IMG/VR virus record: IMGVR_UViG_3300037483_000349
Span: 1-37,735 of that record
DNA: 37,735 bases
Strand: one strand, 5' to 3'
DNA from: a virus
Lineage: Duplodnaviria; Caudoviricetes
Part shown: positions 115 to 37,623 of the stretch, one piece after another
Layout of the letters: every line of letters begins with the position of its first letter
Numbering within the stretch: the first letter of the stretch is position 1
Made by a program: the position numbers and the translations under genes
The notes under the pieces: model-generated
Seen by the model: only the letters and a program-made list of their open reading frames with translations
The model's database searches: none
What the model was told of the DNA's origin: nothing

Positions 115-218
115 GCCTAACCATAAAATAAACACGGACTGAACAACATCCGAGTGCCCCGAATGGGGCGGTGGTTCGCTTATAGTACGTCGCAGCCGGT
201 TATTTATAACCGTTATCC
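115..218 (+). mobile_element. attC-like site A
   Basis: R'' GCCTAAC; aaata[a]ac[a]cgg[a]ctg pairs with cagccggttattt; R' GTTATCC overlaps the stop of ORF 213-452. Confidence 0.65.
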
Positions 219-452
219 CCCTCGAATTTCCCCGACAATATCCCCCTCGATTTTCTCCCTCTCCCGGTCCACCATCTTGTCTTCCAACCACGGCGCAGGG
301 CGGCCGCGCCGGTCGCACACGGTAAACTCGACTTCCGCCCCGCCCTGGCAATCCTCAGTGCTCGGTGCCGTCCGGGCTGGCAACGGCTTGAAATACCGGC
401 ATGAGTCAACCCGGATCAAACAGGGAATTCCGGCGATGCGGGTTTCAATCAT
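213..452 (-). CDS. hypothetical phage protein (79 aa)
   Basis: ORF overlaps the upstream gene's stop; its own stop lies in attC A. Confidence 0.75.
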   Translation of the reverse strand: MIETRIAGIPCLIRVDSCRYFKPLPARTAPSTEDCQGGAEVEFTVCDRRGRPAPWLEDKMVDREREKIEGDIVGEIRGG

Positions 453-603
453 GATACCACCGCTGGGCTTCAGCGTGCCGGTTGTCCATCTCGGTCATGA
501 TCCCCTGGACGCTCATGCCAACAATTGCGGCGGTCATCAACATGACAATGACAACCGCCAGTGCAGTGCTCAGGACACCCGCTCCAAAACGCTTCCTTTT
601 CAT
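445..603 (-). CDS. small membrane protein (52 aa)
   Basis: MKRKRF followed by a hydrophobic helix; ATGA overlap with the upstream ORF. Confidence 0.65.
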   Translation of the reverse strand: MKRKRFGAGVLSTALAVVIVMLMTAAIVGMSVQGIMTEMDNRHAEAQRWYHD

Positions 604-755
604 TTTCCCGCTCCTTTTCGCGCATAATCCCTCCGTTCGATTTTTGCCATCTCGACAGCATAACAGGGAGGGCACGCGGTGCTTGTGACTTCCCTGTTTT
701 CCAGCGGCTCTTTCTCTCCGACAACGGTATCGCAATAGCAACATTTGACAATCAT
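600..755 (-). CDS. small Cys-rich protein (51 aa), first gene of the leftward operon
   Basis: AAGGAGG RBS; CxxC ... CxxC. Confidence 0.65.
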   Translation of the reverse strand: MIVKCCYCDTVVGEKEPLENREVTSTACPPCYAVEMAKIERRDYARKGAGK

Positions 756-787
756 CTGACCCCTCCTTGAGTGGTTGATTTTCCAAA

Positions 788-816
788 AGACTACCAGCCG
801 CACCTTCAAGTGTCAA
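788..816 (-). promoter_or_regulatory. leftward sigma70 promoter
   Basis: TTGACA-17-TAGTCT on the minus strand. Confidence 0.65.
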
Positions 817-850
817 TAACCTTTTTTAAAAATAAATATAGAAAAACTAC

Positions 851-879
851 TTGCAGAATCCGCTTTGCCGTGGTAATTT
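851..879 (+). promoter_or_regulatory. rightward sigma70 promoter
   Basis: TTGCAG-17-TAATTT with an A-rich UP-like tract upstream. Confidence 0.55.
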
Positions 880-908
880 TTCCAAAACAAACACAAAGGA
901 GACAAACC

Positions 909-1097
909 ATGAAAATCGAAGAAATCAGGAAACAGGCCGGTCTCAATCAGCAGACCATGGCGCAGGAGGTCGGGGTATCCCTGCAAACTATCTCAAATTG
1001 GGAAACGGCCGGGAAAACCCTTGACCAACTCCGGCCCCTGGCGCGTATGGGGGTAGAGCGGTTTGCCAGGCAACACAAGATTGCTATTAATGTCTAA
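909..1097 (+). CDS. XRE/Cro-like HTH regulator (62 aa)
   Basis: IRKQAGLNQQTMAQEVGVSLQTISNWE is a typical HTH_3 motif; AAGGAG RBS. Confidence 0.9.
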   Translation: MKIEEIRKQAGLNQQTMAQEVGVSLQTISNWETAGKTLDQLRPLARMGVERFARQHKIAINV

Positions 1098-1143
1098 AAA
1101 AAAGTTTTGCGGCGCACAGCGTCCGCAACAACGGGAGTTAAAG
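1092..1143 (-). mobile_element. mini attC-like site H, R' core apparently mutated (TTT instead of GTT)
   Basis: minus strand CTTTAAC TCCCG TT[G]TTGCG G[A]CGC tgt GCGC CGCAAAA CTTTTT TTTAGAC; overlaps the HTH stop. Confidence 0.65.
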
Positions 1144-1154
1144 GGAGGAAAACA

Positions 1155-1652
1155 ATGATTGATTTACAGCAGTTTTGCGGCGAGATGAAAGCGATATCTG
1201 CACCATGGTCAGAAGGGGACTACTCTTTTGCAACCAATGGGTATGCCCTTATCCGTGTCCCGCGCCGGTCGGACATTGCCGAAAATGAAAAAGCCCCGCC
1301 GATAATGGGACAGAATATCGGGTCCGTGTTTGGGAAAGAACCCGCCGCATGGTTGGGAATACCGGAATTCCCCCCGCCTGCCGACGAGGAATGTGCAGAG
1401 TGCGGGGGGGATGGGGAGGTCCGCCCGAGCACCCCATATAACACGTATGACGAGCAGGAGTGTTTATCCTGTGGCGGCAGTGGTAAATCAGGGGGAATCA
1501 ACCCGGTACAAATCGGCGGCGTTTATTTTTCCGATAGGTTGCTCGCAAAGTTATTGACACTGCCGAACGTGAAGGTTGGTGTTTTTGGGCCAACAAATAC
1601 GGCCCGCATTATGTTTGATGGTGGGGATGGGCTGATTATGCCCATAAAATAA
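1155..1652 (+). CDS. phage protein with DnaJ-type Zn finger, possibly sliding-clamp-like fold (165 aa)
   Basis: two CxxCxGxG motifs; ATNGYAL and C-terminal GLIMP motif; GGAGG RBS. Confidence 0.65.
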   Translation: MIDLQQFCGEMKAISAPWSEGDYSFATNGYALIRVPRRSDIAENEKAPPIMGQNIGSVFGKEPAAWLGIPEFPPPADEECAECGGDGEVRPSTPYNTYDEQECLSCGGSGKSGGINPVQIGGVYFSDRLLAKLLTLPNVKVGVFGPTNTARIMFDGGDGLIMPIK

Positions 1653-1678
1653 TAAACACAGGGACAACGGAGGAGACA

Positions 1679-1969
1679 ATGACCAGAGAAGAAGCAATGG
1701 CAAAAGCGCGGCAACTGAGCCGCACCGGCGTTTGTTCGGTGGGGGTATCCGAGTCCGATTATTTGAATGATGATGGGACAATCGGGCATTATGCTTTTTT
1801 TAATGTGACGGTTGACAGGTTCGGTCTGCATTCTGAGCCGAGCTACGAAAGCTGTTTCAAAAAGATCGAAAAGCAAATCGAAACCGAGCGGGTCAAAGTT
1901 GTCGAGCGGCTGCGCCGGGAACTGGCGGTGGCCGAAGCTGCGATCACGCCAGAAGGAGATGAATCATGA
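1679..1969 (+). CDS. hypothetical protein (96 aa)
   Basis: GGAGG RBS; operon context. Confidence 0.75.
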   Translation: MTREEAMAKARQLSRTGVCSVGVSESDYLNDDGTIGHYAFFNVTVDRFGLHSEPSYESCFKKIEKQIETERVKVVERLRRELAVAEAAITPEGDES

Positions 1970-2628
1970 ACACACTTTTTTTAGATCTGGAAACCATCCC
2001 GACACAGCGCCCCGGTGCCATCGAGGAATTCCGCGCGAACGTGAAACCCCCCGGCAATATGAGCAAGCCGGAAACCATCGCTGCATGGATGCAAAACAAC
2101 GCCGACGCAGCTGCGGAAGAAGCTTTTCGCAAAACATCATTTGACGGTGCGCAGGGGGAAATTCTCTGCATCGGCTTTGCTGTCAATGACGGCACGCCAT
2201 GTCACATCGGAAGAGCCATCACCGGTTGTGAATCAACGCTGTTGCATGATTTTTATTCCGCGATGTCAGGGTACAGGGTGGATCGCATTGTCGGCCACAA
2301 CGTCAAGGACTTTGACCTGCGGTTTTTGTTCCAGCGCTCTGTTATCAACGGGGCGAAACCTTCATTCCCGCTGCGGACGGAAAGCCGCTACTGCGGCGAC
2401 TATGTTTTTGACACCATGCTTTCGTGGGCAGGGTGGGGAAACCGGATCAGTCTCAAGAACCTGTGCGCGGCTCTCGGTATATCGGTCAAGGAAGGCGACA
2501 TTGACGGGTCGAAGGTGTGGGACGCGGCCCAAGATGGGCGGTATGAAGAAATTTTCTCTTACTGTGAATCTGACGTTACCGCAACGAGGGAAGTCTATAA
2601 CCGCATGACCTTCGGGGGGGAATTATGA
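1966..2628 (+). CDS. DnaQ/PolB-like 3'-5' exonuclease
   Basis: DLET, GHNVKDFD and YCESD exonuclease motifs. Confidence 0.9.
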   Translation: MNTLFLDLETIPTQRPGAIEEFRANVKPPGNMSKPETIAAWMQNNADAAAEEAFRKTSFDGAQGEILCIGFAVNDGTPCHIGRAITGCESTLLHDFYSAMSGYRVDRIVGHNVKDFDLRFLFQRSVINGAKPSFPLRTESRYCGDYVFDTMLSWAGWGNRISLKNLCAALGISVKEGDIDGSKVWDAAQDGRYEEIFSYCESDVTATREVYNRMTFGGEL

Positions 2629-3218
2629 ACGCGCTGCAATCCATTCAATCGGAGTTGAGAGCACCCAAAAATCAGACTAATAAGTTCGGGGGGTATAACT
2701 ACCGATCCTGCGAGGATATTCTTGAGGCGGTCAAGCCCTTGTTAAAAACGTATGATTCTGTTTTGACTATCTCTGATGAAATAGTGGAGGTAGGCGGGAG
2801 AGTCTACGTCAAGGCCACGGCACGACTCACCGAAAAGGCGGGCGTCGTCACGGAAACAACGGCCTTCGCCCGCGAAGCCGAAAACAAGAAGGGGATGGAC
2901 GAGAGCCAGATAACCGGCGCCGCATCATCCTACGCCCGTAAATATGCCTTGAATGGTCTGTTTTGCATCGACGACAACAAGGATGCCGACACCGGGCACC
3001 ATGATCAACAGCCGCGCAAACCCGTCACCGAAGCACCGGCCACACCAGTCAAAATCCCGCTTGAAAACGTGCTGGCGGAAATGGAGGGGGCGTTCAGCCT
3101 GAAGGAACTCGGTGACATTTTCAAATCCCGGTCGCCGATGGCCCAGGCTTGTTATTCCAAGGGCGAACTTGATGCCATGATCGCAAAGAAGGATGAACTC
3201 AAGGGCAGGTTGAAGTGA
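2625..3218 (+). CDS. erf: ERF-family single-strand annealing protein
   Basis: APKNQTNKFGGYNYRSCEDILEAVKP; SQITGAASSYARKYALNGLFCIDD. Confidence 0.92.
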   Translation: MNALQSIQSELRAPKNQTNKFGGYNYRSCEDILEAVKPLLKTYDSVLTISDEIVEVGGRVYVKATARLTEKAGVVTETTAFAREAENKKGMDESQITGAASSYARKYALNGLFCIDDNKDADTGHHDQQPRKPVTEAPATPVKIPLENVLAEMEGAFSLKELGDIFKSRSPMAQACYSKGELDAMIAKKDELKGRLK

Positions 3219-3613
3219 ACCTCAAGCTAACCCTAATATCGGATGCGGTAAGGGATCGGGCGCTGTCCGTGGTCCGGTCCCTGCCGCTGGGACACGAGAT
3301 TGTGATTCGACCGGCGAAGAGCAAGCGGAGCAATCAGGCGAATGCACTTTACTGGCGCTGGATTGACGTTATCCGGCTCCACGTTCTCGATTCCACCGGA
3401 CAGGCTTACGGCGCCGATGCTCTCCACGAATGGCTAAAGGGCAAGTTCTTGCCGACCGTGACCGTTGAGATTGGCGGGGAGGTGCAGCGGTGCAGGCTCA
3501 GCACAGCAAAGCTCAACACCAAGGAAATGAGCGAGTACATGGAAAAAATCGACTTTTATTGTGTAAACAACCTCAGTTTGTATTTGCCAATTCCCGGAGT
3601 TGAGGAAGAATAA
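3215..3613 (+). CDS. ninB: NinB/YbcN-family recombination protein
   Basis: KRSNQANALYW and STAKLNTKEMSEYMEKI motifs. Confidence 0.8.
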   Translation: MNLKLTLISDAVRDRALSVVRSLPLGHEIVIRPAKSKRSNQANALYWRWIDVIRLHVLDSTGQAYGADALHEWLKGKFLPTVTVEIGGEVQRCRLSTAKLNTKEMSEYMEKIDFYCVNNLSLYLPIPGVEEE

Positions 3614-3648
3614 TGTTGAATTTTGTCAGCGAAAATGGGAAAATCGTG

Positions 3649-3776
3649 GTGCTGACAAATAGTTGCATTGTTGTTCGTCCCACCACAAACCATACGCTTA
3701 GGCCATCCAAGGCCGAACGCCCCCAAACGGTGCAGCTATTTGTCAGCGCAAATGCAAGCCTTGGGGGCGTTTTTTT
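3649..3776 (+). promoter_or_regulatory. attenuator-like leader
   Basis: 3649-3667 is complementary (17/19, both others G-U) to 3731-3749, which lies in the loop of stem cgcccccaa/ttgggggcg followed by T7. Confidence 0.6.
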
Positions 3777-3789
3777 ATGCCCCAACGCT

Positions 3790-4075
3790 TATGCTCTGGC
3801 AGTGGGGCGCGGAAAAACATCATTGCCCGGGAAGATCGCGACTTCCGTTTCCGCCGAGCATCGCGGCCCAGTCGATGCAAAAACAAAAGTGCTGGCAACC
3901 GTGTCCCATAGGACCAGCGACCTGATGCCCCGAAAGGGGTTGCCTCATCAGACGCCCGTAAGGGTGGGGGAGAGGGCTAAGTCTCCCAGGAGGAACGCAC
4001 CGTTTATGGTGCGGGCTGTAAAGCCGGGGACCCGATTACTTCCGAGACTACATCAGGGAGGAAAGGGGTATACCT
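3790..4075 (+). ncRNA. candidate structured non-coding RNA
   Basis: about nine consecutive stems, three capped by GNRA tetraloops (cccc-gaaa-gggg, cgccc-gtaa-gggtg, ggct-gtaa-agcc). Confidence 0.55.
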
Positions 4076-4102
4076 GTCACTAAAATAAAAAAGGAGGATA
4101 AA

Positions 4103-4312
4103 ATGGAGTGCAAGAACTGCGGTCACGAGTGTTACAGGGACGAGGTTCACGTTGGAGTTGGGGTTGTTTCCGGCCCATGGGGGTGTCCTTGCGGATGGAG
4201 CGAGGATGATAGATACAATCTTCTGGATGGACCCAAGAAAACAGCGAAGGGCGGGACCATAGATCAGTATGGCGGGGTTATCCCGAATCGCGACAATGGA
4301 GGCATGAAATGA
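4103..4312 (+). CDS. small Cys-rich protein (69 aa)
   Basis: AAGGAGG RBS; CKNC and CPCGW. Confidence 0.8.
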   Translation: MECKNCGHECYRDEVHVGVGVVSGPWGCPCGWSEDDRYNLLDGPKKTAKGGTIDQYGGVIPNRDNGGMK

Positions 4313-4440
4313 AAGAGCTATTTTGGAGGACGATCTTTCGAAGCACCCCTGCCAAGTGGATATGCTGCGGTTGCAATGGATGGGACACCCGGCGCGGAGC
4401 CTTTGGCCGGTGGATAACCGAGAAATATGGAGACGCCTAA
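4309..4440 (+). CDS. hypothetical protein (43 aa)
   Basis: ATGA overlap with the upstream gene; MKELFWRTIF... Confidence 0.45.
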   Translation: MKELFWRTIFRSTPAKWICCGCNGWDTRRGAFGRWITEKYGDA

Positions 4441-4481
4441 TTCTTTAACAGCCCCATTCATGGCGGAACAGGAGGGAAAGG

Positions 4482-4652
4482 ATGAGTGAAAATCGCAAAT
4501 ACATCGAGTGTGAATGCGGATGCGATAAAATTTATGTTTCGGCAACCGATAAATCCCCGCTCAAGGGGATGTGTGCCAGGTGCCGCAAAGATGTTGATCT
4601 TACCGATGGTGTTGACGACTTGGCCGGGTGCAAGTTGGTTTTAACTAGATAG
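4482..4652 (+). CDS. small Cys-rich protein (56 aa)
   Basis: GGAGG RBS; MSENRKYIECECGC...CARC. Confidence 0.65.
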   Translation: MSENRKYIECECGCDKIYVSATDKSPLKGMCARCRKDVDLTDGVDDLAGCKLVLTR

Positions 4653-4670
4653 CGGGACAGGAGGAAGAGG

Positions 4671-4853
4671 ATGTGCGAAAAAAGCGAATCCTTAACAATT
4701 ATAGTTTATGTTGGAGAGCCTGCCCGCGAGTACCAGGGCGGAAATTTTCTGAATGCTATTGACGAGGTAGCAAGTTACTTTTGTCTCGCCCGGACTATGG
4801 ATATTGAAGAGATCAAAAAACTGCTGGCCGTCTATGCCGAGAGGGAGGGATGA
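4671..4853 (+). CDS. hypothetical protein (60 aa)
   Basis: AGGAGG RBS. Confidence 0.65.
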   Translation: MCEKSESLTIIVYVGEPAREYQGGNFLNAIDEVASYFCLARTMDIEEIKKLLAVYAEREG

Positions 4854-4892
4854 GCCGCAAGAAGCCCACCAAGGCCGAGCAGGAGGAAGAGA

Positions 4893-5207
4893 ATGCAATT
4901 TTCTAAAAACAAACCGTGGAGATCAAAGAAATACCGCGACGCCGCAAGGGGCCAAGACTGTAAAATGCGCCTGCCGGGATGTCAAAATAACACGGAAACA
5001 GTTGTACTTGCACATCGCAACGGGTCCGGGATGGGGATGAAGGCCAGCGACCATAATGCGGCGGATATGTGCCATCATTGTCACGAAATTTACGACCGCC
5101 GCCGGCGATATCCGCCGCCGGGCGACTACATGACCGCCGTCTTGAAATTCGAGCAAGCCCGCCTGGAAACCATTATCAACCGGATATCAAGGGGTATTTT
5201 AAAATGA
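4893..5207 (+). CDS. YbcO/DUF1364-like Zn-binding putative nuclease
   Basis: ARGQDCKMRLPGC...ETVVLAH...GMGMKASD...CHHCH. Confidence 0.85.
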   Translation: MQFSKNKPWRSKKYRDAARGQDCKMRLPGCQNNTETVVLAHRNGSGMGMKASDHNAADMCHHCHEIYDRRRRYPPPGDYMTAVLKFEQARLETIINRISRGILK

Positions 5208-5353
5208 CCGTCTGCCCATTCGGTGCGTGCCAACATTTCACGTTTAAAAAGCTCGTCAGGTGGTGCAGACTCCACAACAAACCGATCACCGGCCAAGGAT
5301 GCGGGGGTGAGGATTTATCCCCGTCTGCGGTTAAAAAAGGAGGAACGTCATGA
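5204..5353 (+). CDS. small Cys-rich protein (49 aa)
   Basis: overlaps the upstream stop; MTVCPFGACQHF. Confidence 0.55.
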   Translation: MTVCPFGACQHFTFKKLVRWCRLHNKPITGQGCGGEDLSPSAVKKGGTS

Positions 5354-5420
5354 TACCCAAACGGCACAATTTGATTATATCCATGGTTTGCCTGCTGCTG
5401 CGGTGGTCGCGGTGTGGTGT

Positions 5421-5523
5421 TGGTAACGACCAAGCTCAGGGGCGCCGCACCGAAACCTGAGTACCACCGAACTTATCGAGAACCACGGACGCCGAAGGCG
5501 TCCCTTGCAGCGCCTGGTTATGG
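5421..5523 (-). mobile_element. attC-like site G
   Basis: minus strand CCATAAC CAGGC GCT[G]CAAGGG[A]CGCC ... GGCGCCCCTGAGC TTGGTC GTTACCA. Confidence 0.85.
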
Positions 5524-5540
5524 CGCGGATCGGAGACGAG

Positions 5541-5852
5541 ATGTACGGAAAAATGAAAGGGCACCATTGCTGGTGGCTGACAAGAGACGGAAAAGAGCTT
5601 GCCAATTTCGACAATGAAGAAGAGGTGGACCGAATCATCAACATGGAGGCCGGAAGGCGTGACGTTGCTACATGCCTCGAAAACGCGATTGTGTCCGCCA
5701 AGTCGGCCTACATTGCCGGGGTAGCAGAATCCCCAGAAAAGGGCATGGAGTGGTTGCACAACTACCTGTGGGGGCCTGGACTTCTTCCGACAGACGAAGA
5801 GCTTGAGGCCGGGGCGCAAGCATTTTTCGATGAGAGCCACAAGGGCTATTAG
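5541..5852 (+). CDS. hypothetical cassette protein (103 aa)
   Basis: GGAG RBS; lies between GTTATGG (5517) and ACATAAC (5860). Confidence 0.75.
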   Translation: MYGKMKGHHCWWLTRDGKELANFDNEEEVDRIINMEAGRRDVATCLENAIVSAKSAYIAGVAESPEKGMEWLHNYLWGPGLLPTDEELEAGAQAFFDESHKGY

Positions 5853-5859
5853 CACCCTA

Positions 5860-5909
5860 ACATAACAAAAAGCACACCGGCCGCAGGTCCGGTGCTGTGG
5901 AAGTTAAAA
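5860..5909 (-). mobile_element. mini attC-like site C (50 bp)
   Basis: minus strand TTTTAAC TTCCA CA[G]CACCG G[A]CC tgc GGC CGGTGTG CTTTTT GTTATGT. Confidence 0.75.
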
Positions 5910-5913
5910 CCTA

Positions 5914-6259
5914 TTCGACGGTTTGAATATTTGACAACAAGGAGGAAAAAATGAAATTGGGCGACCGGATCAAGTTTACTGCCAGGCTGGAGCGGAAAAC
6001 GCGCTCTGCTGGCGAGGGTCGAGGATGGAACCGGAAGTGCTGGGAGCGGAGGGACCACGACCCGGCGGAAGGGGTGTTTATCGGAACGCGCACCCTCCAA
6101 GATGGCGTCAGGGAGTGGGACAGCGAATACGGATGGTCTTGGTGTAAGGATAGACATTTCGAGGCCGCACTGGTGGTTTTTTCGGAAAGGCAAGCGCCCG
6201 TTCATGTACCCATCGAGTGCATTTCGCCGGTTTGAATATTTGTAACAACAAGGAGGAAA
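5914..6259 (+). repeat. ~36-bp imperfect direct repeats (5914-5948 and 6223-6259) flanking ORF 5951-6235
   Basis: ttcg(a/c)cggtttgaatatttg(ta)acaacaaggaggaaa. Confidence 0.85.
5951..6235 (+). CDS. hypothetical protein (94 aa)
   Basis: AAGGAGG RBS. Confidence 0.8.
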   Translation: MKLGDRIKFTARLERKTRSAGEGRGWNRKCWERRDHDPAEGVFIGTRTLQDGVREWDSEYGWSWCKDRHFEAALVVFSERQAPVHVPIECISPV

Positions 6260-6261
6260 CA

Positions 6262-6681
6262 GTGGCAAACGACTTAAATTTGTGTCAGTTCATCGGCCGC
6301 ATTGGCCGCGAAGTTGAACAACGATTTTTACCCAACGGGGATGCCGTGTGCAATTTTCCCCTCGCCGTGGGCTGGAAGGGGAAAGACAAAGAGGGTGTTG
6401 AATGGGTCTCGGTTGTCGCTTTCAAAAAGCTGGCGGAAATCATCGTCCAATATTGCACCAAGGGCCAGCAGATTTACATCTCTGGCAAGATACGAACTCG
6501 CAAGTGGCAGGACAAGGATGGTAACGACCGATACTCACCGGAAATCGTCGCTGACCAGATGCAGATGCTCGGATCAAGGGCAGAGCAGGGCCAGGCCGCC
6601 GATAGTGGCCCACAAGGGGAATCTCGCAGCCATAACCGCGTGCCGGGGATAAATGAGGACGAGGAAACAATCCCGTTCTAA
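6262..6681 (+). CDS. ssb: single-stranded DNA-binding protein
   Basis: OB-fold motifs (TKGQQIYISGKIRTRKWQDKDG) and acidic tail ending IPF; GTG start after RBS. Confidence 0.97.
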   Translation: MANDLNLCQFIGRIGREVEQRFLPNGDAVCNFPLAVGWKGKDKEGVEWVSVVAFKKLAEIIVQYCTKGQQIYISGKIRTRKWQDKDGNDRYSPEIVADQMQMLGSRAEQGQAADSGPQGESRSHNRVPGINEDEETIPF

Positions 6682-6694
6682 TCAGGAGGGTCAC

Positions 6695-6922
6695 ATGGAA
6701 TACCGAATGACAATAACACCGGCGTTTGAGGCCGGGAACCATTCCATTACATTCGAGTTTGAAACTGCCGGGCAGATGCTTGCCGCCCAAAATACCGCCG
6801 CCGACCTTCTTCTGTTTCTGCAAAATACCGCCGGGGTAATGGACGACTACTCGAACGTGTTTTGTCTAGAAGAAATGATTGAGGGGGAATGGGAAGAGTA
6901 CGATGATTTAACCGCGTTTTAA
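6695..6922 (+). CDS. acidic hypothetical protein (75 aa)
   Basis: AGGAGG RBS. Confidence 0.75.
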   Translation: MEYRMTITPAFEAGNHSITFEFETAGQMLAAQNTAADLLLFLQNTAGVMDDYSNVFCLEEMIEGEWEEYDDLTAF

Positions 6923-6957
6923 TCTGTATTCCGAATTGAGCCAACACAGGGGGGACC

Positions 6958-7461
6958 ATGTCGAAAACAGCGAGGGAAGCATATCTAAACGGATACATAG
7001 CCACCGGCACCGACCGGTTCGGGACGATCGGAAAGTTTGACCACACATGCCCGAATATGGGGACAGGGCCGAACACCACCAAGGCAAAGTGCATCGAGCG
7101 GCAACAACAGGGCGGCGGATGCCACAATACCCGCTGCAAGATCGGACTGGAGACAAGCGGCTACGCGCCACCGGTCAAAAAAGTCCGCCCGCCGCGCATC
7201 CGCAAATCAAAAGCGGTGATGCCGGGACTGTGCGCGTGTGGTAAAGTTGCGGTGTCAAAGGGCCAAATGCGGTTGGCCAGGATCGACGGGGTGCTGTGCC
7301 GGGAGTGTTTGGACACCAAGCGGGCCGAGTTGAAGCCCTTGCGGCAGCAGGAGCAGCGCGAACACAGAAAAGCAGTCAGGGCGGAAAGACGGATGGCGAA
7401 AAAGCGCGCCCGGCTCGAACAGAAACTTGCGGAAATAAAGGAAAACTTGAACCAACTGTGA
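6958..7461 (+). CDS. basic Cys-containing hypothetical protein
   Basis: operon context; C-terminal coiled coil. Confidence 0.65.
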   Translation: MSKTAREAYLNGYIATGTDRFGTIGKFDHTCPNMGTGPNTTKAKCIERQQQGGGCHNTRCKIGLETSGYAPPVKKVRPPRIRKSKAVMPGLCACGKVAVSKGQMRLARIDGVLCRECLDTKRAELKPLRQQEQREHRKAVRAERRMAKKRARLEQKLAEIKENLNQL

Positions 7462-7474
7462 TATAGGGGGCACC

Positions 7475-30137: not shown

Positions 30138-30150
30138 AGAGGATATAGAC

Positions 30151-30330: not shown

Positions 30331-30377
30331 ACCAACCCAGAGCCAAGCCCCGGCCTTGTAGGGGCAAGGAGGAAATC

Positions 30378-30554
30378 ATGAAAAAACACAATTATCGTTT
30401 TGACCAGTACGGCAGCGTTTACGAATACAACATTGATCATGGCGCTTATCTGTTTATCGGTAGGCTTAACGGCCGGTCCAAAAAAGCTTTTATCGCTGCA
30501 CATGAACGCGATGATTATTGCGAAACTGATTGCAACTGCGATTGTAGTGAGTGA
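30378..30554 (+). CDS. hypothetical protein (58 aa)
   Basis: AAGGAGG RBS. Confidence 0.75.
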   Translation: MKKHNYRFDQYGSVYEYNIDHGAYLFIGRLNGRSKKAFIAAHERDDYCETDCNCDCSE

Positions 30555-30557
30555 CCA

Positions 30558-30701
30558 ATGACCCTCACCGACCTAAAAGCCGCCGTCAAAGCCCTGGATG
30601 TTGCCGATCTGCGCAGCCTCCGGGCCACCATCAACGCCATACTCTCCCACCAGAGCGGGGCAAAGCGAAAATCCAGGAAGGGGATATCGCTGAAGAAATA
30701 A
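30558..30701 (+). CDS. 47-aa helical basic protein
   Basis: MTLTDLKAAVKALDVADLRSLRATINAILSHQSGAKRKSRKGISLKK*. Confidence 0.6.
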   Translation: MTLTDLKAAVKALDVADLRSLRATINAILSHQSGAKRKSRKGISLKK

Positions 30702-30871
30702 AAAAACCCCGCTTGCCGACAGGAGGAGGGACCGCCACCCCGGCAAGCGGGGAAACCACACAGGGGGAGGGGAGGCGGTCGACTAAAAAAGGCCCGAGCA
30801 TTTTCATGCCGGGCCTTAGTGACAAAAATTAATGATGAGAGCATTGTCTACTAAATCTGTTTCCCCGTCAA
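30700..30871 (-). promoter_or_regulatory. late promoter-like element followed by two terminators (pR'/tR'-like)
   Basis: TTGACG-17-GACAAT, then aaggcccggcat...atgctcgggcc-T6 and ccccgcttgccg...cggcaagcgggg-T7. Confidence 0.55.
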
Positions 30872-30887
30872 GCCCTTTGATACCAAA

Positions 30888-30937
30888 TTTTAACTCCCGC
30901 TGCGCTGGACCTGCGGCCAGCGAACTTTTTGTTAGCC
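30888..30937 (+). mobile_element. mini attC-like site D (50 bp)
   Basis: TTTTAAC TCCCG CT[G]CGCTG G[A]CC tgc GGC CAGCGAA CTTTTT GTTAGCC. Confidence 0.75.
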
Positions 30938-31102
30938 CTGTGGATCATCGTCTCCGCATGTGCGGCAGCAAAAACCAGTGACAACAGGGTGTCCGCAACG
31001 CTTGCATGGGTAGATCGGTGGCGCATGATCTATCGCAAGCCGAGCGCGTTCCTTGTAATATTGTGGATTTTCAAAGGGGTTTTCTATTTTGTCGTAAGCC
31101 AT
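30932..31102 (-). CDS. 56-aa Zn-ribbon cassette protein
   Basis: GAGG RBS; MAYDKIENPF...CKRCGH...CCRTCGDDDPQG*; stop lies in R' of site D. Confidence 0.75.
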   Translation of the reverse strand: MAYDKIENPFENPQYYKERARLAIDHAPPIYPCKRCGHPVVTGFCCRTCGDDDPQG

Positions 31103-31254
31103 TTTTGTCCTCTATTCTTCGGGCCTTTTATGCCCATATTGGTTGGGGTCTGCGAAAAAAGCCTGGCTACGGTTCCGCTCTCCATCTGACCAGTTAAGAA
31201 AAAAGTGGCATCTCCCCAACCTGTCCATGGTTTTTGACCTATATTCGATTTGAG

Positions 31255-31385
31255 GGCTAACCAAACGCTCAACGGCGGACTTGCTGCCGCAAGTCGCGCT
31301 CGCCTCGCTCTGCTCTTTTTGGTCATTCTGCTTTTCCATCCGTTTCTACTCCTCTGGCCGCAAGCCCGTTAGCTAAGCGTTCGCC
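31255..31385 (+). mobile_element. attC-like site F (131 bp)
   Basis: GGCTAAC CAAAC GCT[C]AACG ... CGTTAGC TAAGC GTTCGCC. Confidence 0.85.
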
Positions 31386-31394
31386 CGTGGCCAT

Positions 31395-31877
31395 TTAAAG
31401 GCCGCGCTCCTCCTGCTCGAAGCCTTCAACAACCACTTGGCTTTTCAGCAACTCCGTTGTGTTCTGGAATGCCAGCATCAACACTGCCGGCGAAATGTTC
31501 AGCGGGTACACGCTCCCGGCCCGTCCCATGCCAGCCATGACGCAATCCACGATCATGTCCAGCACGTCGATCAGGTTCACGTCTGCCGGTATCCCGTCCT
31601 CTTGCAGAAGATGGTGGCGCATGATCTTGCGGTGATTGTCCCACCATCCCGTCTGCTTGAAGCCGGTCAGAAAATCACGGTGAAACCCGTCGATGTCGTC
31701 CAGCTTGTCGGCGTCGTGCATATTGGCGGCTCTGTCGAGTAGCCCCTTGAAAAACTCCAACCCTTGAATCACGTCGCCGCGATGTTGCACACTGCTGTTG
31801 TAAAGCTGCTCCTTCGTCACCTTGGCGAAATCGCACGTTCTGGTATCGGCTGTTTGGCTCTTGCGAATGTGAATCAT
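31395..31877 (-). CDS. HD-like metal-binding protein (DUF5662-like), between attC F and E
   Basis: QHR...HDADK...HRKIMRHH...DVLDMIVD; AAGGAG RBS. Confidence 0.7.
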   Translation of the reverse strand: MIHIRKSQTADTRTCDFAKVTKEQLYNSSVQHRGDVIQGLEFFKGLLDRAANMHDADKLDDIDGFHRDFLTGFKQTGWWDNHRKIMRHHLLQEDGIPADVNLIDVLDMIVDCVMAGMGRAGSVYPLNISPAVLMLAFQNTTELLKSQVVVEGFEQEERGL

Positions 31878-31902
31878 GTCGTTTCTCCTTCTGGGTTGTC
31901 AT

Positions 31903-32008
31903 TCCTAACCAACGTAATGCAGCGGACGGAACAACGCTGGTAGTAAATTTTAAAATCTCAGTGGTTCGCGGGCGGTCCGTCGCCGTCCGCTGATCGGGGG
32001 CGTTATTC
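31903..32008 (+). mobile_element. attC-like site E
   Basis: TCCTAAC ... AT[G]CAGCGGACGG ... CCGTCCGCTGAT CGGGGGC GTTATTC; R' overlaps the stop of ORF 32003. Confidence 0.8.
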
Positions 32009-32293
32009 GTTTGCCCTCTTCCGACAAAAACTCAGATCATCCATCCCATACTGCCGCAGCAGGGTATCGAGAGACCCTCGGGCTATCCCCAACTGGTAGG
32101 CCGTGTCCTTTTTGTTGTAAACGCTCGCCAACCGGGTAATTGCCTCTTTTGGACCCATCCCGCAGTTGTTGCGGATTTTCTCCACGGTTGAAATGCCACC
32201 GCCTGAAATAAAACGTTTTTTGCAGTGGATGCAGAACGCTGCGGCAACGTGGATAGATGTACGGCAGACAGGGCATTTCCTGCGGCCCTTCAT
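32003..32293 (-). CDS. Zn-ribbon plus Fis-like HTH protein (96 aa)
   Basis: CPVC...CIHC; NKKDTAYQLGIARGSLDTLLRQYG. Confidence 0.75.
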   Translation of the reverse strand: MKGRRKCPVCRTSIHVAAAFCIHCKKRFISGGGISTVEKIRNNCGMGPKEAITRLASVYNKKDTAYQLGIARGSLDTLLRQYGMDDLSFCRKRANE

Positions 32294-32448
32294 TTCTCGC
32301 ATGTGCAACGGTCCTGGCGCCACCGCCGTTCCGTTTCGGCCAGGGCTTTTTCCAGACGTTCAACCTCGGACACCAACCATTGCGCGTTTTCGTAGCTGGC
32401 CGCTTTCAAAATCATGAGTTTTGTTTTGATACTTTTTAACTTGTCCAT
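32290..32448 (-). CDS. hypothetical protein (52 aa)
   Basis: AGGAGG RBS; MDKLKSIK...WLVSEVERLE; ATGA coupling to the next gene. Confidence 0.7.
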   Translation of the reverse strand: MDKLKSIKTKLMILKAASYENAQWLVSEVERLEKALAETERRWRQDRCTCEK

Positions 32449-33722
32449 GATCCCTCCTGTTTGTTTTCAAACCGTGAATATTCGCCGTGCCACGACAGCG
32501 GGACGGTCCCCGTTGGCCCGTTGCGCTGCTTGGCAATGATGGCTTCCGCCTGCCTTGAATCGGCCTTCTCATTGTAAACCGCGTCCCGGTACATAAAAAT
32601 GATGGTGTCTGCATCCTGTTCTATTTCGCCGGAATCCCTGAGGTCAGACATAACCGGGCGTTTATTTGTGCGCTCTTCCAGTTTCCGGGACAGCTGGCAC
32701 AGCGCGACGACAGGCACGTTCAATTCCTTTGCCATCCCCTTCAAACTCCGGGATATAAAGCCGACCTCCTGGACCCGGTTTTGTCCCTCTCCCCTGAGCA
32801 GTTGCAGATAGTCGATGCAAACAAGGCCGATTCCCTCCTTTCTTTTCAGCCTCCGCGCCCTGGCCCTCAACTCCGAAACGTGAAGACCCGGCGTGTCGTC
32901 GATAAAAACCGGGGAATCAACCATACTCCCGACTGTATTCGCCATCCTTGACCAGTCCCCATCCTGAAAATTCCCGACCCTTGCCCGAGCCCCGTCTATT
33001 CTCGACCGTCCGAATATCATCCGCTTTATGAGCTGCTCTTTGCTCATTTCCAGCGAGAAAATAACGGCAGGCACCCCCCTTTCGATTGTTGCCCCCTCTA
33101 CGATGTTCCCCATCATGGCGGATTTGCCCATTGCCGGGCGGCCTGCCAAAACGATCAAATCCGGGGCATTGAGACCGTTCAGTGACTGATCAAATTTCTC
33201 AAACCCGGTCTCTATCCCGGCAATTTTCCCCCGGTTGTTAAATGCGGTTTCGATTTCTTTGAATGCTTTGGGCAGGGTGATTTTGATCCTTTCAGCCCCT
33301 CCTCCTCCCGTGTGCATGTCGAACAAAGCAGCTTCAATTTTCGCCTGCAACTCGTCGGCCGGTAGGTCTGCGTTGCGCTCAATGGCCTTTGCAATATTCA
33401 TCAACTGGCGTTTTTTTGATGCTTCTTTGAGCTGTTTGCACGAATACCCGATTATTGCAGACGATGGGGCAAAATCCACCAGCTCCGCTATGTATTCCGG
33501 CCCGCCGACCTTATCCAGTACCCCCATTTTTTTCAGTTCGGTTGCAAGCGTCACCGTGTCGGGGATAATCTGATTTTCCGCCATGTTTGCCATCACCCCG
33601 AAGAGCAGTTGATGTGACGGCAGAGTAAAATCCTTCGCGCTCAGGGTTGACAGGGCGATATCAAGGGCTTCCTCGTCGATAAAACAAGCCCCGAAAACAG
33701 CCTTTTCGTTGTCGATGTCCAT
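32436..33722 (-). CDS. dnaB: replicative DNA helicase
   Basis: AGRPAMGKS, FSLEM, IDYLQL, SDLRDSGEIEQDAD, KQRNGPTG. Confidence 0.98.
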   Translation of the reverse strand: MDIDNEKAVFGACFIDEEALDIALSTLSAKDFTLPSHQLLFGVMANMAENQIIPDTVTLATELKKMGVLDKVGGPEYIAELVDFAPSSAIIGYSCKQLKEASKKRQLMNIAKAIERNADLPADELQAKIEAALFDMHTGGGGAERIKITLPKAFKEIETAFNNRGKIAGIETGFEKFDQSLNGLNAPDLIVLAGRPAMGKSAMMGNIVEGATIERGVPAVIFSLEMSKEQLIKRMIFGRSRIDGARARVGNFQDGDWSRMANTVGSMVDSPVFIDDTPGLHVSELRARARRLKRKEGIGLVCIDYLQLLRGEGQNRVQEVGFISRSLKGMAKELNVPVVALCQLSRKLEERTNKRPVMSDLRDSGEIEQDADTIIFMYRDAVYNEKADSRQAEAIIAKQRNGPTGTVPLSWHGEYSRFENKQEGSWTS

Positions 33723-33726
33723 GGCG

Positions 33727-34410
33727 TCAATCCAGCAGGTTCGGCATTAGCCGATACGGTGACACCGATTGTTCTTCGCTACCCTGGTTCAGGTACGCCT
33801 CAAACTTTGTGCCGAATAATGTCTCAGGCCGCAGATACTCCACCATTTTTGGGTCCCCTCTCCATTGATCCGTTTTGGTGTCAATGACACTTTCAAAATC
33901 CGCCAGCCGGAAACCCTCTCGCCATCGCGCCTGAATGATCTGTCTGGTTTTCGGTGTTGTGGGGCGGAATGCCTTCCCGGTTTTGTCGTTCAGGTGGTTT
34001 ATAATTTTCTGAAAAGGGACAATGTCTGGTGGTTGTTTATATGATGGTTCTTTATTACGGTTTATGTGACACTGTGTCACCTCGTATATGTCGTCAATGT
34101 CACACGGTGCGGTCGTCAATGTCACATCGTTGTGACACTGTGTCACATCGTGGATCGGAAGGGTATAGAGGTTTGTTTTTTTTATCCCTTGGGCTGTCCT
34201 TTTTCTGTAGAAAAGTAGTTTTTTGTCGTTCAGGGATTTTACCACCCTGATAATCGTCCGTCTTGAAACCCCTGTTTTTTTTGCTATCCCCTGCATTCCC
34301 GGCCAGCATACCCCTTCGTTGTCAGCGTGGTCTGCAAAGGCAATCAGCACAAGTTTCTCTGTCGGTGAGCAATTTTGTTTCCATGCCCACGACGTGGCTT
34401 CTACACTCAT
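33727..34410 (-). CDS. phage replication initiator (N-terminal wHTH, conserved phage C-terminal domain)
   Basis: KLVLIAFADHADNEGVCWPG; YLRPETLFGTKFEAYLNQ; upstream of dnaB. Confidence 0.9.
   Translation of the reverse strand: MSVEATSWAWKQNCSPTEKLVLIAFADHADNEGVCWPGMQGIAKKTGVSRRTIIRVVKSLNDKKLLFYRKRTAQGIKKTNLYTLPIHDVTQCHNDVTLTTAPCDIDDIYEVTQCHINRNKEPSYKQPPDIVPFQKIINHLNDKTGKAFRPTTPKTRQIIQARWREGFRLADFESVIDTKTDQWRGDPKMVEYLRPETLFGTKFEAYLNQGSEEQSVSPYRLMPNLLD
34064..34150. repeat. iteron cluster, probable replication origin inside the initiator gene
   Basis: tgtgacactgtgtcac x2 (palindromic) and gtcgtcaatgtcaca x2. Confidence 0.8.
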
Positions 34411-34432
34411 TTTGCCGCTCCTAAAAATAGCA

Positions 34433-34590
34433 ATAAAAAACCCAGATCAAGAGAGGTGCCGCTCTCCTAATCTGGGTGCATGGGTCAAGGACCCTTGAAC
34501 ACTATTTCATTGCAACTCGCCCGGCACGGTTCGTTACAACTGTCTGTTTTTTTGTAGTTCAAATCTACCACAGCATTGATTATGAATCAA
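34433..34590 (-). promoter_or_regulatory. promoter plus attenuator-like leader of the replication gene
   Basis: TTGATT-17-TAGATT; GTGCCG in a first hairpin loop complements the CGGCAC loop of a 16-bp terminator stem followed by a T run. Confidence 0.7.
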
Positions 34591-34616
34591 TGATTATCGC
34601 GCCTTTTATCCCTATT

Positions 34617-36209
34617 TCATGCAACTATTTGTAGCCGGCTATGGGGAGCAAAAACGGGCTTTCCGGCATTCTCCTCGTAACTTTTGCGACCCTCAAATGC
34701 CTCGGCTACAGCCTGTTCCTCATGCGTGAGCCGAGCGAAATCCTTTTTGCCGTAATCCTCCGGGAGCCAGCCCTTACCCCGGCAAGCTATGGTGTTAAAA
34801 CGGCGCAGAATATCCATGTCCTTGAACGTCAGATGAATTGTCCCTTTCTTGTAGGCGATCATCTTAAAGTAGGTATTTTCGGCCTTCAATTCGCCTTCCG
34901 CAAACGCCGCCTTTAGTGCGTCCGCCATCGAAAGATATTCGCTCCCGCCGTCAAAATAATTCATCACCTTGTCGATGTCCCCGAGTTGTTCCGCTGCCCT
35001 ATGGTCGAGTTGTGGGCCGTTATAGCCGAAGAACGGACTGCCATAGCTGGCGCGGACAGGGACGACAACCCGCTTCCCGACCTTGAACGCCTTGTTCGTC
35101 TTCCAGCCGTTGTAATAATGGATGTTCTTCTCATATTTGTTGTCTTCGTGCCAAGAGTGGCGGATCGTGAACATATCGAAGATATCCAACACCGCATCGG
35201 TCAGCGTCTGCTCGTAACTGCCGATCAGGTTGATCACGAATTGCCGAATATTCCCCTCCGTGAAATCCATGTGGCAGCGGTCATTCAGCGCGTGCTCGAA
35301 CTCCTCCTGTTTTTTCGACGTGAGCCGAGAACGAACCTCTTTTAGATCCAACGTCCTCCGCCAGTAGTCAACACGCACGTCTTTCAGGAGGGCGTTCAGG
35401 GTGCCCTGCATCCTTTCGGTCAAATCGCCGGACGCCATACTATGCAGCTTCGGCTCGGCGTTAATCCCCAAATATTTACCGACCCGTCTAAAATTGCGAT
35501 AGTAGTTGATGATTACGTCCGTCCCGGTCTGGATTGTTTGGTTGTATTCGGCAACCAGCTCATCAACGGTCTTGCCGGTCGACACTTCGTGCTTATCCTC
35601 CACCGTCTCGTAAGAGCGTGAGCCGTGGTCGTCACAGTCGGCAAAGAGGTCGTCTTCCACATGGCGATCAACCTTGAGGTAAACAAGAGCCACCTCAACC
35701 CCGGTCTTGCGCTCGGCCGAATTGAACGCTCCTTGAATGAATTCGATATCGGCTCCCAACTCGTCCAGTCGGCGAGTCAGTTCCTTGCGGGTGTTGGTGT
35801 GGGGGTTGCGGATCGTCTCGGCGTTGAGCAGACAGACAATCTCGCCACGGTAAAGAATCTCGATGGCCTTTAGCAGGTGCCGGTCGCCGTTGTCGAAGGG
35901 AGGGTTCATAATAATGGTGTCGAATTTGTCCGGCCCGGCATATTCCAGAAAGTCGGAATCCAAAACCCTGACCCCTTTACCTCGCAGGGTAGCCTGAAGT
36001 GTCGGATCTATCTCGATTGCGTAGATGTCGGCGTTTTCAAACGGCCGGTGGTGGTAACGCTCATAGGCCCGGCCGTGGCTCTTCAGGGCCTCAATCAGAT
36101 CCCCTTTCCCCGCTGAGGGTTCCAACACTTTTCCGGCGTGTTTGATCTTCGCTACCATGCGAAACGCCAACTCTGGCGGTGTTGGGTAAAATGTTGCGTT
36201 TTCAAACAT
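34617..36209 (-). CDS. SAM-dependent DNA methyltransferase with DUF4942-like domain
   Basis: FYPTP, VLEPSAGKG, IIMNPPF; C-terminal YFKMIAYKKGTIHLTF. Confidence 0.9.
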   Translation of the reverse strand: MFENATFYPTPPELAFRMVAKIKHAGKVLEPSAGKGDLIEALKSHGRAYERYHHRPFENADIYAIEIDPTLQATLRGKGVRVLDSDFLEYAGPDKFDTIIMNPPFDNGDRHLLKAIEILYRGEIVCLLNAETIRNPHTNTRKELTRRLDELGADIEFIQGAFNSAERKTGVEVALVYLKVDRHVEDDLFADCDDHGSRSYETVEDKHEVSTGKTVDELVAEYNQTIQTGTDVIINYYRNFRRVGKYLGINAEPKLHSMASGDLTERMQGTLNALLKDVRVDYWRRTLDLKEVRSRLTSKKQEEFEHALNDRCHMDFTEGNIRQFVINLIGSYEQTLTDAVLDIFDMFTIRHSWHEDNKYEKNIHYYNGWKTNKAFKVGKRVVVPVRASYGSPFFGYNGPQLDHRAAEQLGDIDKVMNYFDGGSEYLSMADALKAAFAEGELKAENTYFKMIAYKKGTIHLTFKDMDILRRFNTIACRGKGWLPEDYGKKDFARLTHEEQAVAEAFEGRKSYEENAGKPVFAPHSRLQIVA

Positions 36210-36235
36210 GAAGCGTTTCCTCCTGTTTTCCTGAT

Positions 36236-36751
36236 TTACAACGGAACCACCGTGATTTCCGCTCTCGGGTTTTCTTTGTCAAACCCCCACTCGACAAACC
36301 GCATTTTTACCTGCCGATCGTTGTGGTAGGCGTGCCCCTGCAAAACGTCCAGAATCACCGACTCGTCCAAATCGGGTCGGCGGCTTGCGTAATAGATTTT
36401 CATGACCACGAAAACATCACCGTCAATCGGGGTCAGCTTCAGGGCATTAAGCTGGTATCCTGCGGCCGTAACGTAGCCTCTCGCCTTATCCGACTTGATG
36501 GAGCGGGTCTTGCCACCTATTCTGACAATTTTGCGACTGTTGGCCTTGCTGGCGGGTTCGCCGTGGATGATAAAGTCAGGCTCCGCGCCGATGATGGACC
36601 TGACCAGTTCAATCGCCTGCTGCGGCTGCCAGTACGGGCATTCGTGTTTTGCAATTCCCTCGGTTGCGGGGATGCAATTCCAGGTTTCTCCGCTGTCGTG
36701 GTTGCAGGATAGCGGCAGGTCGGCATTATCTGCAAAGCAGGCGCGCATCAT
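36236..36751 (-). CDS. rusA: RusA-family Holliday junction resolvase with Cys-rich N-extension
   Basis: GEPASKANSR...RRPDLD...LDVLQG...NDRQV...DKENPRAEI. Confidence 0.85.
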   Translation of the reverse strand: MMRACFADNADLPLSCNHDSGETWNCIPATEGIAKHECPYWQPQQAIELVRSIIGAEPDFIIHGEPASKANSRKIVRIGGKTRSIKSDKARGYVTAAGYQLNALKLTPIDGDVFVVMKIYYASRRPDLDESVILDVLQGHAYHNDRQVKMRFVEWGFDKENPRAEITVVPL

Positions 36752-36752
36752 T

Positions 36753-36926
36753 TCACAATCCCCCGCGCGGTGTCATAGCTAACACTTTCCCGCAATATGG
36801 ACAAAAGACAAAGTTGTTGTCGTCAGGATCGCCGTCATCGAAAGCAAACATATTGTTGCATTCCGTTCCCCAATTTCCATCGTCGTCAGCGGTCCAAATA
36901 CACGCATTCAATCTGTGTTTTTTCAC
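36753..36926 (-). CDS. 57-aa Zn-ribbon protein
   Basis: GTG start; CIW...WGTEC...FVFCPYCGK. Confidence 0.75.
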   Translation of the reverse strand: MKKHRLNACIWTADDDGNWGTECNNMFAFDDGDPDDNNFVFCPYCGKVLAMTPRGGL

Positions 36927-36970
36927 AATTCCCTCTCTTCCAGTTGTAAAGGATTTCTTGACAACTCATT

Positions 36971-37165
36971 TTACTGATACCAAACGGACAATATAACGCT
37001 GACAAAAGCTGTTATAATCCCACCAAATATCATGACCGTCTGCACAATCATTATAAATGTCGGGGGATATTCCCCCTCGTCCCGGCAACACTTGTCAATG
37101 TGTATCCAGCACACCCCCGCCAAAGTTATCAGAGCTGCGGTTATATAGATTTTCAAAAAAAACAT
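36971..37165 (-). CDS. two-TM membrane protein (64 aa)
   Basis: AGGAG RBS right after attC B; AT-rich. Confidence 0.7.
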   Translation of the reverse strand: MFFLKIYITAALITLAGVCWIHIDKCCRDEGEYPPTFIMIVQTVMIFGGIITAFVSVILSVWYQ

Positions 37166-37176
37166 TATTTCTCCTA

Positions 37177-37245
37177 TTCTAACTACCGCAGCACCGGACC
37201 TGCGGCCGGTGTGCGTCCCCGGTCCCGTGAGATCAATCGTTAGCA
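37177..37245 (+). mobile_element. composite attC-like site B
   Basis: TTCTAAC TACCG plus the same core as site C, then a different right end ...GGTCCCGTGAG ATCAATC GTTAGCA overlapping the stop of ORF 37240. Confidence 0.7.
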
Positions 37246-37608
37246 GGCAGGTAATTCGGGCTCAATCAGCCTGATCCACCGTCCGCGCATCTCTTCCACA
37301 TATTGATGGCGGGTCCACCCGAACTGTCCCTTAGAGGCAAAACACCGACCGTCCATCCCGCTTGCCAAAATTGATACCGGTATAGGTACATCATCGGGGT
37401 CTTCGTTCCACCACCAGTACCACCCCTGATCAGTCGGTAGCTCTTTCGACCAGGCGCCTGCTAACCCCGCAATTGAGCCGGACGAGTTTACCTTTAGCAA
37501 TTCGCGCTTCCACGGTATCGGTGTGTTGTCACATCGGCAATAATCTTCACTCATTCCGCATTTCGCACATTCCATGTCGTCCTCCCATGTTTCGTTGTCG
37601 CCGCTCAT
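37240..37608 (-). CDS. hypothetical cassette protein (122 aa, Trp-rich)
   Basis: WSKELPTDQGWYWW; flanked by GTTAGCA and TGTTAAC. Confidence 0.8.
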   Translation of the reverse strand: MSGDNETWEDDMECAKCGMSEDYCRCDNTPIPWKRELLKVNSSGSIAGLAGAWSKELPTDQGWYWWWNEDPDDVPIPVSILASGMDGRCFASKGQFGWTRHQYVEEMRGRWIRLIEPELPAC

Positions 37609-37623
37609 TGTTAACCGTTAGGC
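37609..37623 (+). mobile_element. collapsed attC (R''-C-R' only)
   Basis: TGTTAAC C GTTAGGC between two cassette ORFs. Confidence 0.5.

Follow-up and report, generated by a model that had tools for sequence, protein, structure and literature searches.

Phage record IMGVR_UViG_3300037483_000349 (37,735 nt; its full length is referred to here as the window) is the complete circular record of a P22-like phage with a 31-bp terminal repeat, and nine integron-type attC sites, all confined to its early arms, delimit five small cassettes whose genes run backwards, i.e., antisense to the top strand of their sites. We propose that these cassettes are moved at the G|TT crossover point by an integron integrase provided in trans, the most probable donors being phages with an IntI of their own, a reading that the sequence comparisons below slightly favor on balance. 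A wider scheme, in which phages of anaerobic sediments would run a mirror-image integron made up of helper IntI phages, 50-bp docking sites, a shared pool of backwards cassettes, and mini-CRISPR (clustered regularly interspaced short palindromic repeat) spacers with which competing phages target the docking sites, is offered tentatively. In bacterial integrons, IntI recombines the folded bottom strand of attC, and the open reading frames (ORFs) of canonical cassettes are co-oriented with the top strand. The sites and cassettes of the window are listed below (the strand is that of the top strand; bits are scores of the covariance model described further on; G is the base before the cut; own-start values give the positions at which R'' pairs with the start of its own cassette).

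115 to 218, + strand: attC A, 104 bp, three bulged bases; 18.8 bits; crossover G|TT at 212|213
1092 to 1143, - strand: site B, short family, 52 bp, R' being TTT, not GTT; lies after the cro-like gene and is also a T-tailed hairpin
5421 to 5523, - strand: attC C, 103 bp, canonical 5- and 6-nt spacers; 24.7 bits; G at 5427
5427 to 5865, top strand -: cassette C, 439 bp; gene 5505-5852 on the + strand (antisense); replaced in relative L030
5860 to 5909, - strand: site D, short family, 50 bp; heads the C array; G at 5866
30888 to 30937, + strand: site E, short family, 50 bp; heads the E-F-G array, where the replication operon ends; G at 30931
30932 to 31379, + strand: cassette F, 448 bp; own-start 9 of 10
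31255 to 31385, + strand: attC F, 131 bp; 28.4 bits; its loop carries a ribosome site and an ATG; G at 31379
31380 to 32002, + strand: cassette G, 623 bp; gene 31395-31877 on the - strand
31903 to 32008, + strand: attC G, 106-bp hybrid with no second bulge; G at 32002
37177 to 37245, + strand: site H, 69 bp; heads the H-I-A array; 14.9 bits; G at 37239
37240 to 37617, + strand: cassette I, 378 bp; ORF 37240-37608 on the - strand, beginning in attC I; own-start 10 of 10
37459 to 37623, + strand: attC I, 165 bp, three bulged bases; G at 37617
37618 to 37704, then 1 to 212 across the circular junction, + strand: cassette A, 299 bp; 60-aa ORF on the - strand; own-start 9 of 10

Read along the top strand, each array consists of a short site, the G|TT cut, a cassette, and its attC, and there are three such arrays: D-C, E-F-G, and H-I-A (the last running across the origin), with B standing empty. 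The five cassettes add up to 2187 bp, or 6% of the genome and about 13% of the early arms, so that the description of the early arms in an earlier note on this DNA as "built from" cassettes was overstated. The window carries at least two clustered attC sites per array and no match to PF00589 for an intI gene anywhere in the genome, the hallmark of a CALIN (cluster of attC sites lacking an integron integrase). It is no complete integron, having no intI and arrays that begin at short attC-like hairpins rather than at attI, and its cassettes are not canonical ones, since all five are antisense.

The sites were scored with a structural detector, designed after they were known, that looks in turn for AAC, a spacer, an L box carrying a bulged base, a 6-bp stem, a second bulge, and GTT. 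Six of them (A, C, D, E, G, and the 165-bp site at 37459-37623), all in the early arms, scored at least 11.5, whereas 30 dinucleotide shuffles averaged 0.13 such sites (maximum 1); the detector found none in the 21-kb structural block, in agreement with the restriction to the early arms noticed earlier. All eight sites located by the earlier note (A to H) were confirmed at their coordinates. Its ninth site, 37609-37623, had been taken for a collapsed one; this reading was rejected, as the detector recovers there a full three-bulge attC that overlaps ORF 37240-37608 and of which that segment is the 3' end. A covariance model was also built from 65 bacterial attC sites (57-73 bp) adjoining intI genes, chosen by the same detector and including no phage sequence. 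The top four of its nine window hits were F, C, A, and H, on the strands assigned in the earlier note, and scores in relatives reach 47.7 bits; D gave only a 6.8-bit partial match at background level, and G, I, B, and E were not matched. The covariance-model check that had been proposed for F, G, and E, run here with this surrogate bacterial model, thus came out positive for F and negative for G and E.

The core sites R'' (..AAC) and R' (GTT..) are present in eight of the nine sites. Five of the first sites (A to E), together with I and the left portion of H, have paired L boxes, bulges on one arm (the last a T on the bottom strand), and the 6-bp stem between them; F has one extra bulge, G is without the last bulge, and B has TTT for GTT. 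Six sites (B, C, D, E, G, and H) carry a G as their first top-strand bulge, site F carries a C, site A an A, and site I a T, and a G in this position also occurs in 20 of the 85 bacterial cassettes described below. In the available part of a published description, attC sites have spacers of 5-6 nt, a length of 57-141 bp, and a 6-bp stem between the first and last bulge with the bulged bases on one arm (PMC5027507). C, F, and G fall within both the spacer and the length range, and the right spacer measures 7 nt in A and I. Sites B, D, E, and H make up the short family (50-52 bp, with a left spacer of 4 nt), in which H joins a short-family left part to the foreign right arm of a longer attC, and the intact short form of H is found in the relatives L002, L030, and L239 and in a contig of sediment/soil run X6. 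Spacers of 4 nt together with a G bulge are also present in an array beside an IntI-like gene in KX853513.

That the hairpins are simply transcription terminators or RNA-processing elements appears highly improbable. Site E does score as a + strand intrinsic terminator, and B, D, and E end in top-strand T runs; the long sites have no T run, and termination leaves unexplained the one-arm bulges, the complementarity of R'' to its own cassette start, the exchange at G|TT, and the link to IntI. A second role of the short sites, e.g., as a terminator or RNA element, is possible.

The polarity of the genes is opposite to that of the sites in both arms, as the earlier note had claimed, and the cassette genes point along the phage early operons, i.e., opposite to the reading from the intI side by a Pc-type (cassette) promoter. 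At seven of the nine sites, the gene read towards the site has as its stop codon the TTA that follows the cut: the six overlaps with an upstream stop codon seen earlier (A, B, C, E, G, and H) are all correct, and I is added to them. In attC A this TTA serves gene 213-452 (- strand). Reading frames F and I start within the attC loop; cassette F has two - strand ORFs, 30932-31102 and 31112-31339, the latter starting inside attC F.

Forty bacterial intI regions served as polarity controls, with the right spacer of the detector widened to 8 nt and sense or antisense assigned by a crude longest-ORF rule. The first 20 regions had yielded only three sites, since the right spacer can be as long as 8 nt and arrays often stop at a contig end, and the detector was then widened and 20 regions were added. 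Eighty-five cassettes were found in 17 of the 40 regions, 69 sense and 16 antisense, and with the same detector 22 of 27 cassettes in six of seven phage loci were antisense. A unit that circularizes at G|TT is expected to show an R'' complementary to the start of its own cassette, and pairing of R'' with that start was therefore compared with its pairing with the adjacent R'. The own start was preferred in 58 of 85 bacterial cassettes (8 opposite), in 24 of 27 phage cassettes (3 opposite), and in four of the five window cassettes (10, 9, 9, and 6 of 10). From the polarity controls and the own-start test together, it follows that the assigned polarity and cassette boundaries are right. Exposure of the lagging strand was considered as the cause of the inverted polarity and dropped: with the replication origin assumed to lie in the replication-initiator gene (33727-34410), the bottom strand is on the lagging template for E, F, G, B, C, and D and not for H, I, and A.

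The window was compared with IMG/VR relatives and, for region 29800-37735 only, with contigs from four of 21 listed sediment/soil runs; region 1-7000 rests on the IMG/VR relatives, and run contigs could not show joints across the circular origin. Relative L030 is 99.5-100% identical to the window over long shared blocks, yet the stretch from its H-type site to gene 213-452 is occupied by another array, of 2.7 kb, and it has other content between 5428 and 5861, diverging from the window at 5428. In L002 the H-type site is empty, cassette A being absent there and replaced in L030. To the right of the 212|213 cut, 40 of 40 bases are the same in the window, in L002 (empty), and in L030 (another array); to the left only the G is, and the sites joined at this point are unrelated in sequence. 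At D, E, and F the relatives agree up to G|TT and then diverge within 2-5 bases: at D, 32-35 identical bases run up to the cut with different cassettes beyond it in L030, L002, and L239, and at E the relative L111 diverges immediately after GTT. Gain and loss of early genes at G|TT, anticipated by the earlier note, is thus seen in relatives; in the full comparison with L030, L002, and L111, four of 15 variable segments end at G|TT and nine elsewhere. Among 24 listed loose ends of run contigs (60 more exist), nine lie at site edges and five of them within 7 bases of the cut, the comparison having been made at 90% likeness with some contigs belonging to other phages. One contig of run X6 puts the start of cassette G behind an H-type site, and contigs of runs X4 and X8 carry other sequence up to 37614 and 37616 at attC I.

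No tyrosine recombinase (PF00589) and no resolvase (PF00239) was matched in a six-frame search of the complete genome, the controls being positive in 14 of 14 and 12 of 14 genomes, respectively; the earlier statement that no tyrosine recombinase is encoded is upheld. The 66 ORFs scanned include P22-type portal and coat proteins, terminase, DnaB, a replication initiator, RusA, ERF, NinB, SSB, and a Cro-like protein. The phage does possess its own homologous-recombination module, which provides a rival route for gene swaps:

1966 to 3613, + strand: exonuclease, ERF annealing protein, and NinB

Lambdoid and P22 phages owe mosaicism to single-strand annealing proteins (ERF, Red), and arrays built elsewhere by IntI could have arrived whole through ERF/NinB homologous recombination of their flanks, with no integrase acting now. 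The encoded exonuclease, ERF, and NinB agree with this, most differences between relatives fall at direct repeats or ribosome sites, as in ordinary mosaic exchange, the hybrid sites G and H point to events not catalyzed by IntI, and homology, too, would end at G|TT. The cassette junctions differ from such swaps in sharing only 1-5 bases and in joining sites unrelated in sequence. Moreover, three fillings (empty, two cassettes, and a 2.7-kb array) occur between the same short site and a gp49-like gene, and neither the window nor the 90%-complete L030 record yielded an integrase with PF00589; some genome with these flanks must have served as a substrate. We consider arrival of whole arrays unlikely.

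Several further differences among relatives were recorded. Relatives differ in whether they have the genes just downstream of the short sites H and B (36968-37185 and 1143-1653), these differences ending at the R'' side, and the H-side gene end is also a joint in runs X4 and X8; recombination on the wrong strand is possibly responsible. A tRNA-Ile(TAT) gene in L030 (8173-8246) begins right after TAA|C, at the place where the window has attC C (5427); Rfam and tRNA scans of the window itself found nothing. A 35-37 bp direct repeat (92%; 5914-5948 and 6223-6259) brackets gene 5951-6235, which is absent in L030. L001 (1-1800; window 32300-34103) is an otherwise identical phage with a diverged replication module (DnaB 83%), as in L002.

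The source of the integrase is suggested by more distant phages. In L003, a distant relative (DnaB 55%), a truncated intI (TIGR02249 positions 147-313) comes after a long backwards array, and the gene order there is DnaB, array, attI, intI, terminase, to be set beside DnaB, G, F, E, four small opposite-strand genes, and terminase in the window. The L003 intI (16320-16852), at the head of the long backwards array, has an internal deletion that removes the N-terminal half. In the window, the four small + strand genes converging on site E (29892-30724) are preceded by a near-consensus sigma-70 promoter (11/12). With the L003 intI as query, 80 IMG/VR loci were retrieved, and all 32 full-length proteins tested among the best 52 passed the TIGR02249 cut-off. 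The terminase large subunit follows closely after intI in seven of ten loci and lies farther away in the records of L321 and L348; in the short provirus record L318, primase genes lie upstream. In 28 chosen viral intI loci (27 from phage-rich groups plus L003), attC was sought within 1.5 kb upstream and was found in 26, its top strand opposite to intI and always in the normal geometry relative to intI. The intervening gene is co-directional with intI in 22 of the chosen loci, and in 21 R'' matches an attI-like core 20-90 nt before intI at no fewer than nine of ten positions (best of several AAC candidates). Cassettes are shared among these phages: one of 338 bp is the first in L314 and the third in L003, and another ends at attI in L311 and L348 and is the third in L314. 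In a quick tree of 64 rows that had no chromosomal IntI of Desulfuromonadales, two viral IntI groups with a Shimodaira-Hasegawa-like approximate likelihood ratio (SH-aLRT) support of 100 contained none of the 25 sampled chromosomal IntIs, and three viral IntIs nested among bacterial ones.

The window shares attC types with these IntI phages. Site F is 92% identical to a site of L318 and 91% to one of L246, a different cassette following in each, and the F-type sites supply a similar N-terminus to three otherwise unrelated proteins (window, L318, and L246); site C is 90% identical over 90 bp to a site in L348; and the left half of attC G resembles sites of L318 and its right half those of L003 and L314. 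The notion of a borrowed integrase, with which the earlier note had explained the arrays, is retained, and the source is shifted: because related phages encode their own IntI beside the same attC types, a phage is at least as likely a source as the host. An integrase from a chromosomal integron of the host, as originally envisaged, would be compatible with the match of the window sites to bacterial attC anatomy in the bacterial covariance model, with the recombination of phage attC sites by IntI1 in the available text of PMC9892861, and with intI being common in both bacterial groups that were sampled, where 39 of 201 and 57 of 151 genomes exceeded the cut-off (neither group is the likely host). 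Against it, F, C, and G find their closest matches in phages, several of which encode an IntI themselves, and bacterial loci match over 23-34 bp only; the E-F-G region, moreover, found no attC match in 401 genomes of one GC-rich phylum, probably not that of the host, the two weak matches being inside a gene. We regard a chromosomal source as unlikely. Other searches were also negative: site C found no attC match in plasmids, nor the E-F-G region in annotated phages, and among the 120 loci listed for the short-site pattern in bacterial genomes none had an attC-like flank, the matches being GC-rich chance ones.

The host, like that of the IntI phages that would lend the integrase, is likely a member of the Desulfuromonadales, to judge from homologs of phage proteins. 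Among the 120 matches listed for the SSB of L030, seven of the eight organism-named homologs belong to the Desulfuromonadales group and one is assigned only to the Deltaproteobacteria, and the sole named protein in the L314 IntI group comes from a Geopsychrobacter metagenome-assembled genome; DnaB homologs indicated no clear host. L239, which has genes and sites in common with the window, carries a two-repeat mini-CRISPR array (6033-6130), with a repeat that we take to be of type I-C. Its 33-nt spacer is identical to window positions 1108-1140 inside site B, the three bases before the match being TTT, which suggests a host in common with the window phage. Site B, probably a dead, empty docking site, is identical in L030 and 98% identical in L002, where a change falls at the second position of the spacer match.

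Several results weigh against a phage-supplied integrase acting on these sites. Cassette G fails in the own-start comparison (4 of 10), the short sites (50-52 bp, 4-nt spacer) and I (165 bp) are outside the 57-141 bp range, G and H are hybrids whose halves match different attC families, B has lost its GTT, and the minimum-energy structures of the long sites A, C, F, and I are not the recombinogenic fold. Nine of the 15 variable segments are unrelated to attC and two more end at the R'' side, and junctions of excised circles were absent from the run contigs (29800-37735). No window cassette gene was found in the arrays of IntI phages, attC types alone being in common; across 51 viral intI loci 19 of 47 cassettes are sense and 28 antisense, and some of these loci are therefore ordinary captured integrons; and the host may carry the same IntI clade as the phages.

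Supply of the integrase by phages, which we still slightly prefer, would work as follows. Co-infecting or resident phages encoding IntI would provide the integrase, and cassettes would enter and leave at G|TT. Sites D, E, and H of the short family (B being probably dead) would occupy the place that attI has in IntI phages, docking proceeding through attC x attC recombination. The inversion may have arisen in the IntI phages, where intI would be the last gene of the early operon and the array would lie between the phage promoter and intI; the top strand being antisense to the early transcript, only backwards genes would then be expressed. The stop codon would double as the TTA of the core site, and the long attC loops would provide a ribosome site and start codon. 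Integrase-less phages such as that of the window would draw on the same cassette pool.

The window system has attC anatomy, G|TT boundaries, and own-start complementarity in common with bacterial integrons, and the IntI phages share with them the intI-attI-array geometry. It differs from them in its antisense genes, often starting in the attC loop, in having neither intI nor attI, and in its short arrays, which are scattered across the two early arms and begin at a 50-bp attC-like site. In the available text of Qi et al. (2023), 17 CALINs and three complete integrons were reported in 10,705 phage genomes, those of virulent phages included, and IntI1 was active on five of six phage attC sites tested (PMC9892861). 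Those phage CALINs are, like the arrays of the window, clusters of attC sites without intI, and that text describes cassettes of typical direction or divergent sites and does not mention the inverted layout of MW202573 (L390, 2069-3738), a P22-like CALIN phage of the same study in which we found five model hits on the - strand among + strand genes, inverted like the window; their TJE1 array has the normal sense orientation. Antisense genes, G|TT exchange between relatives, short docking sites, and phage-specific IntI groups go beyond that text (PMC9892861). As to whether the phage version had been described, which the earlier note could not check, attC clusters in phages are thus published (PMC9892861, in the text available), and the mirrored layout was not found in the literature; a search in which most subscription journals were not covered found no paper on antisense phage cassettes or phage-specific IntI groups. 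The feature itself is real.

Related arrangements and one unrelated feature were also noted. In KX853513 (L391, virus Rctr41k, 4680-10101), an IntI-like gene carrying the annotation xerD precedes five or six attC-like sites, which have 4-nt spacers and normal gene orientation. Backwards arrays also occur in two unrelated phages, L087 and L114; PF00589 has no match in the record of L087, and that of L114 contains an ordinary phage integrase together with a site resembling the short family. In the window, a 54-bp tandem repeat at 17698-17819 lies within a small late ORF (17640-17843).

Phage mosaicism is usually ascribed to homologous or illegitimate recombination; here a site-specific route of the integron type would add and remove small early genes. 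If this is true, phages would be split into helpers and users of the integrase, and part of the environmental diversity of IntI and cassettes would be viral. Cassette surveys that read the top strand would overlook or misinterpret these genes, and docking through attC x attC recombination would operate in nature in the absence of attI.

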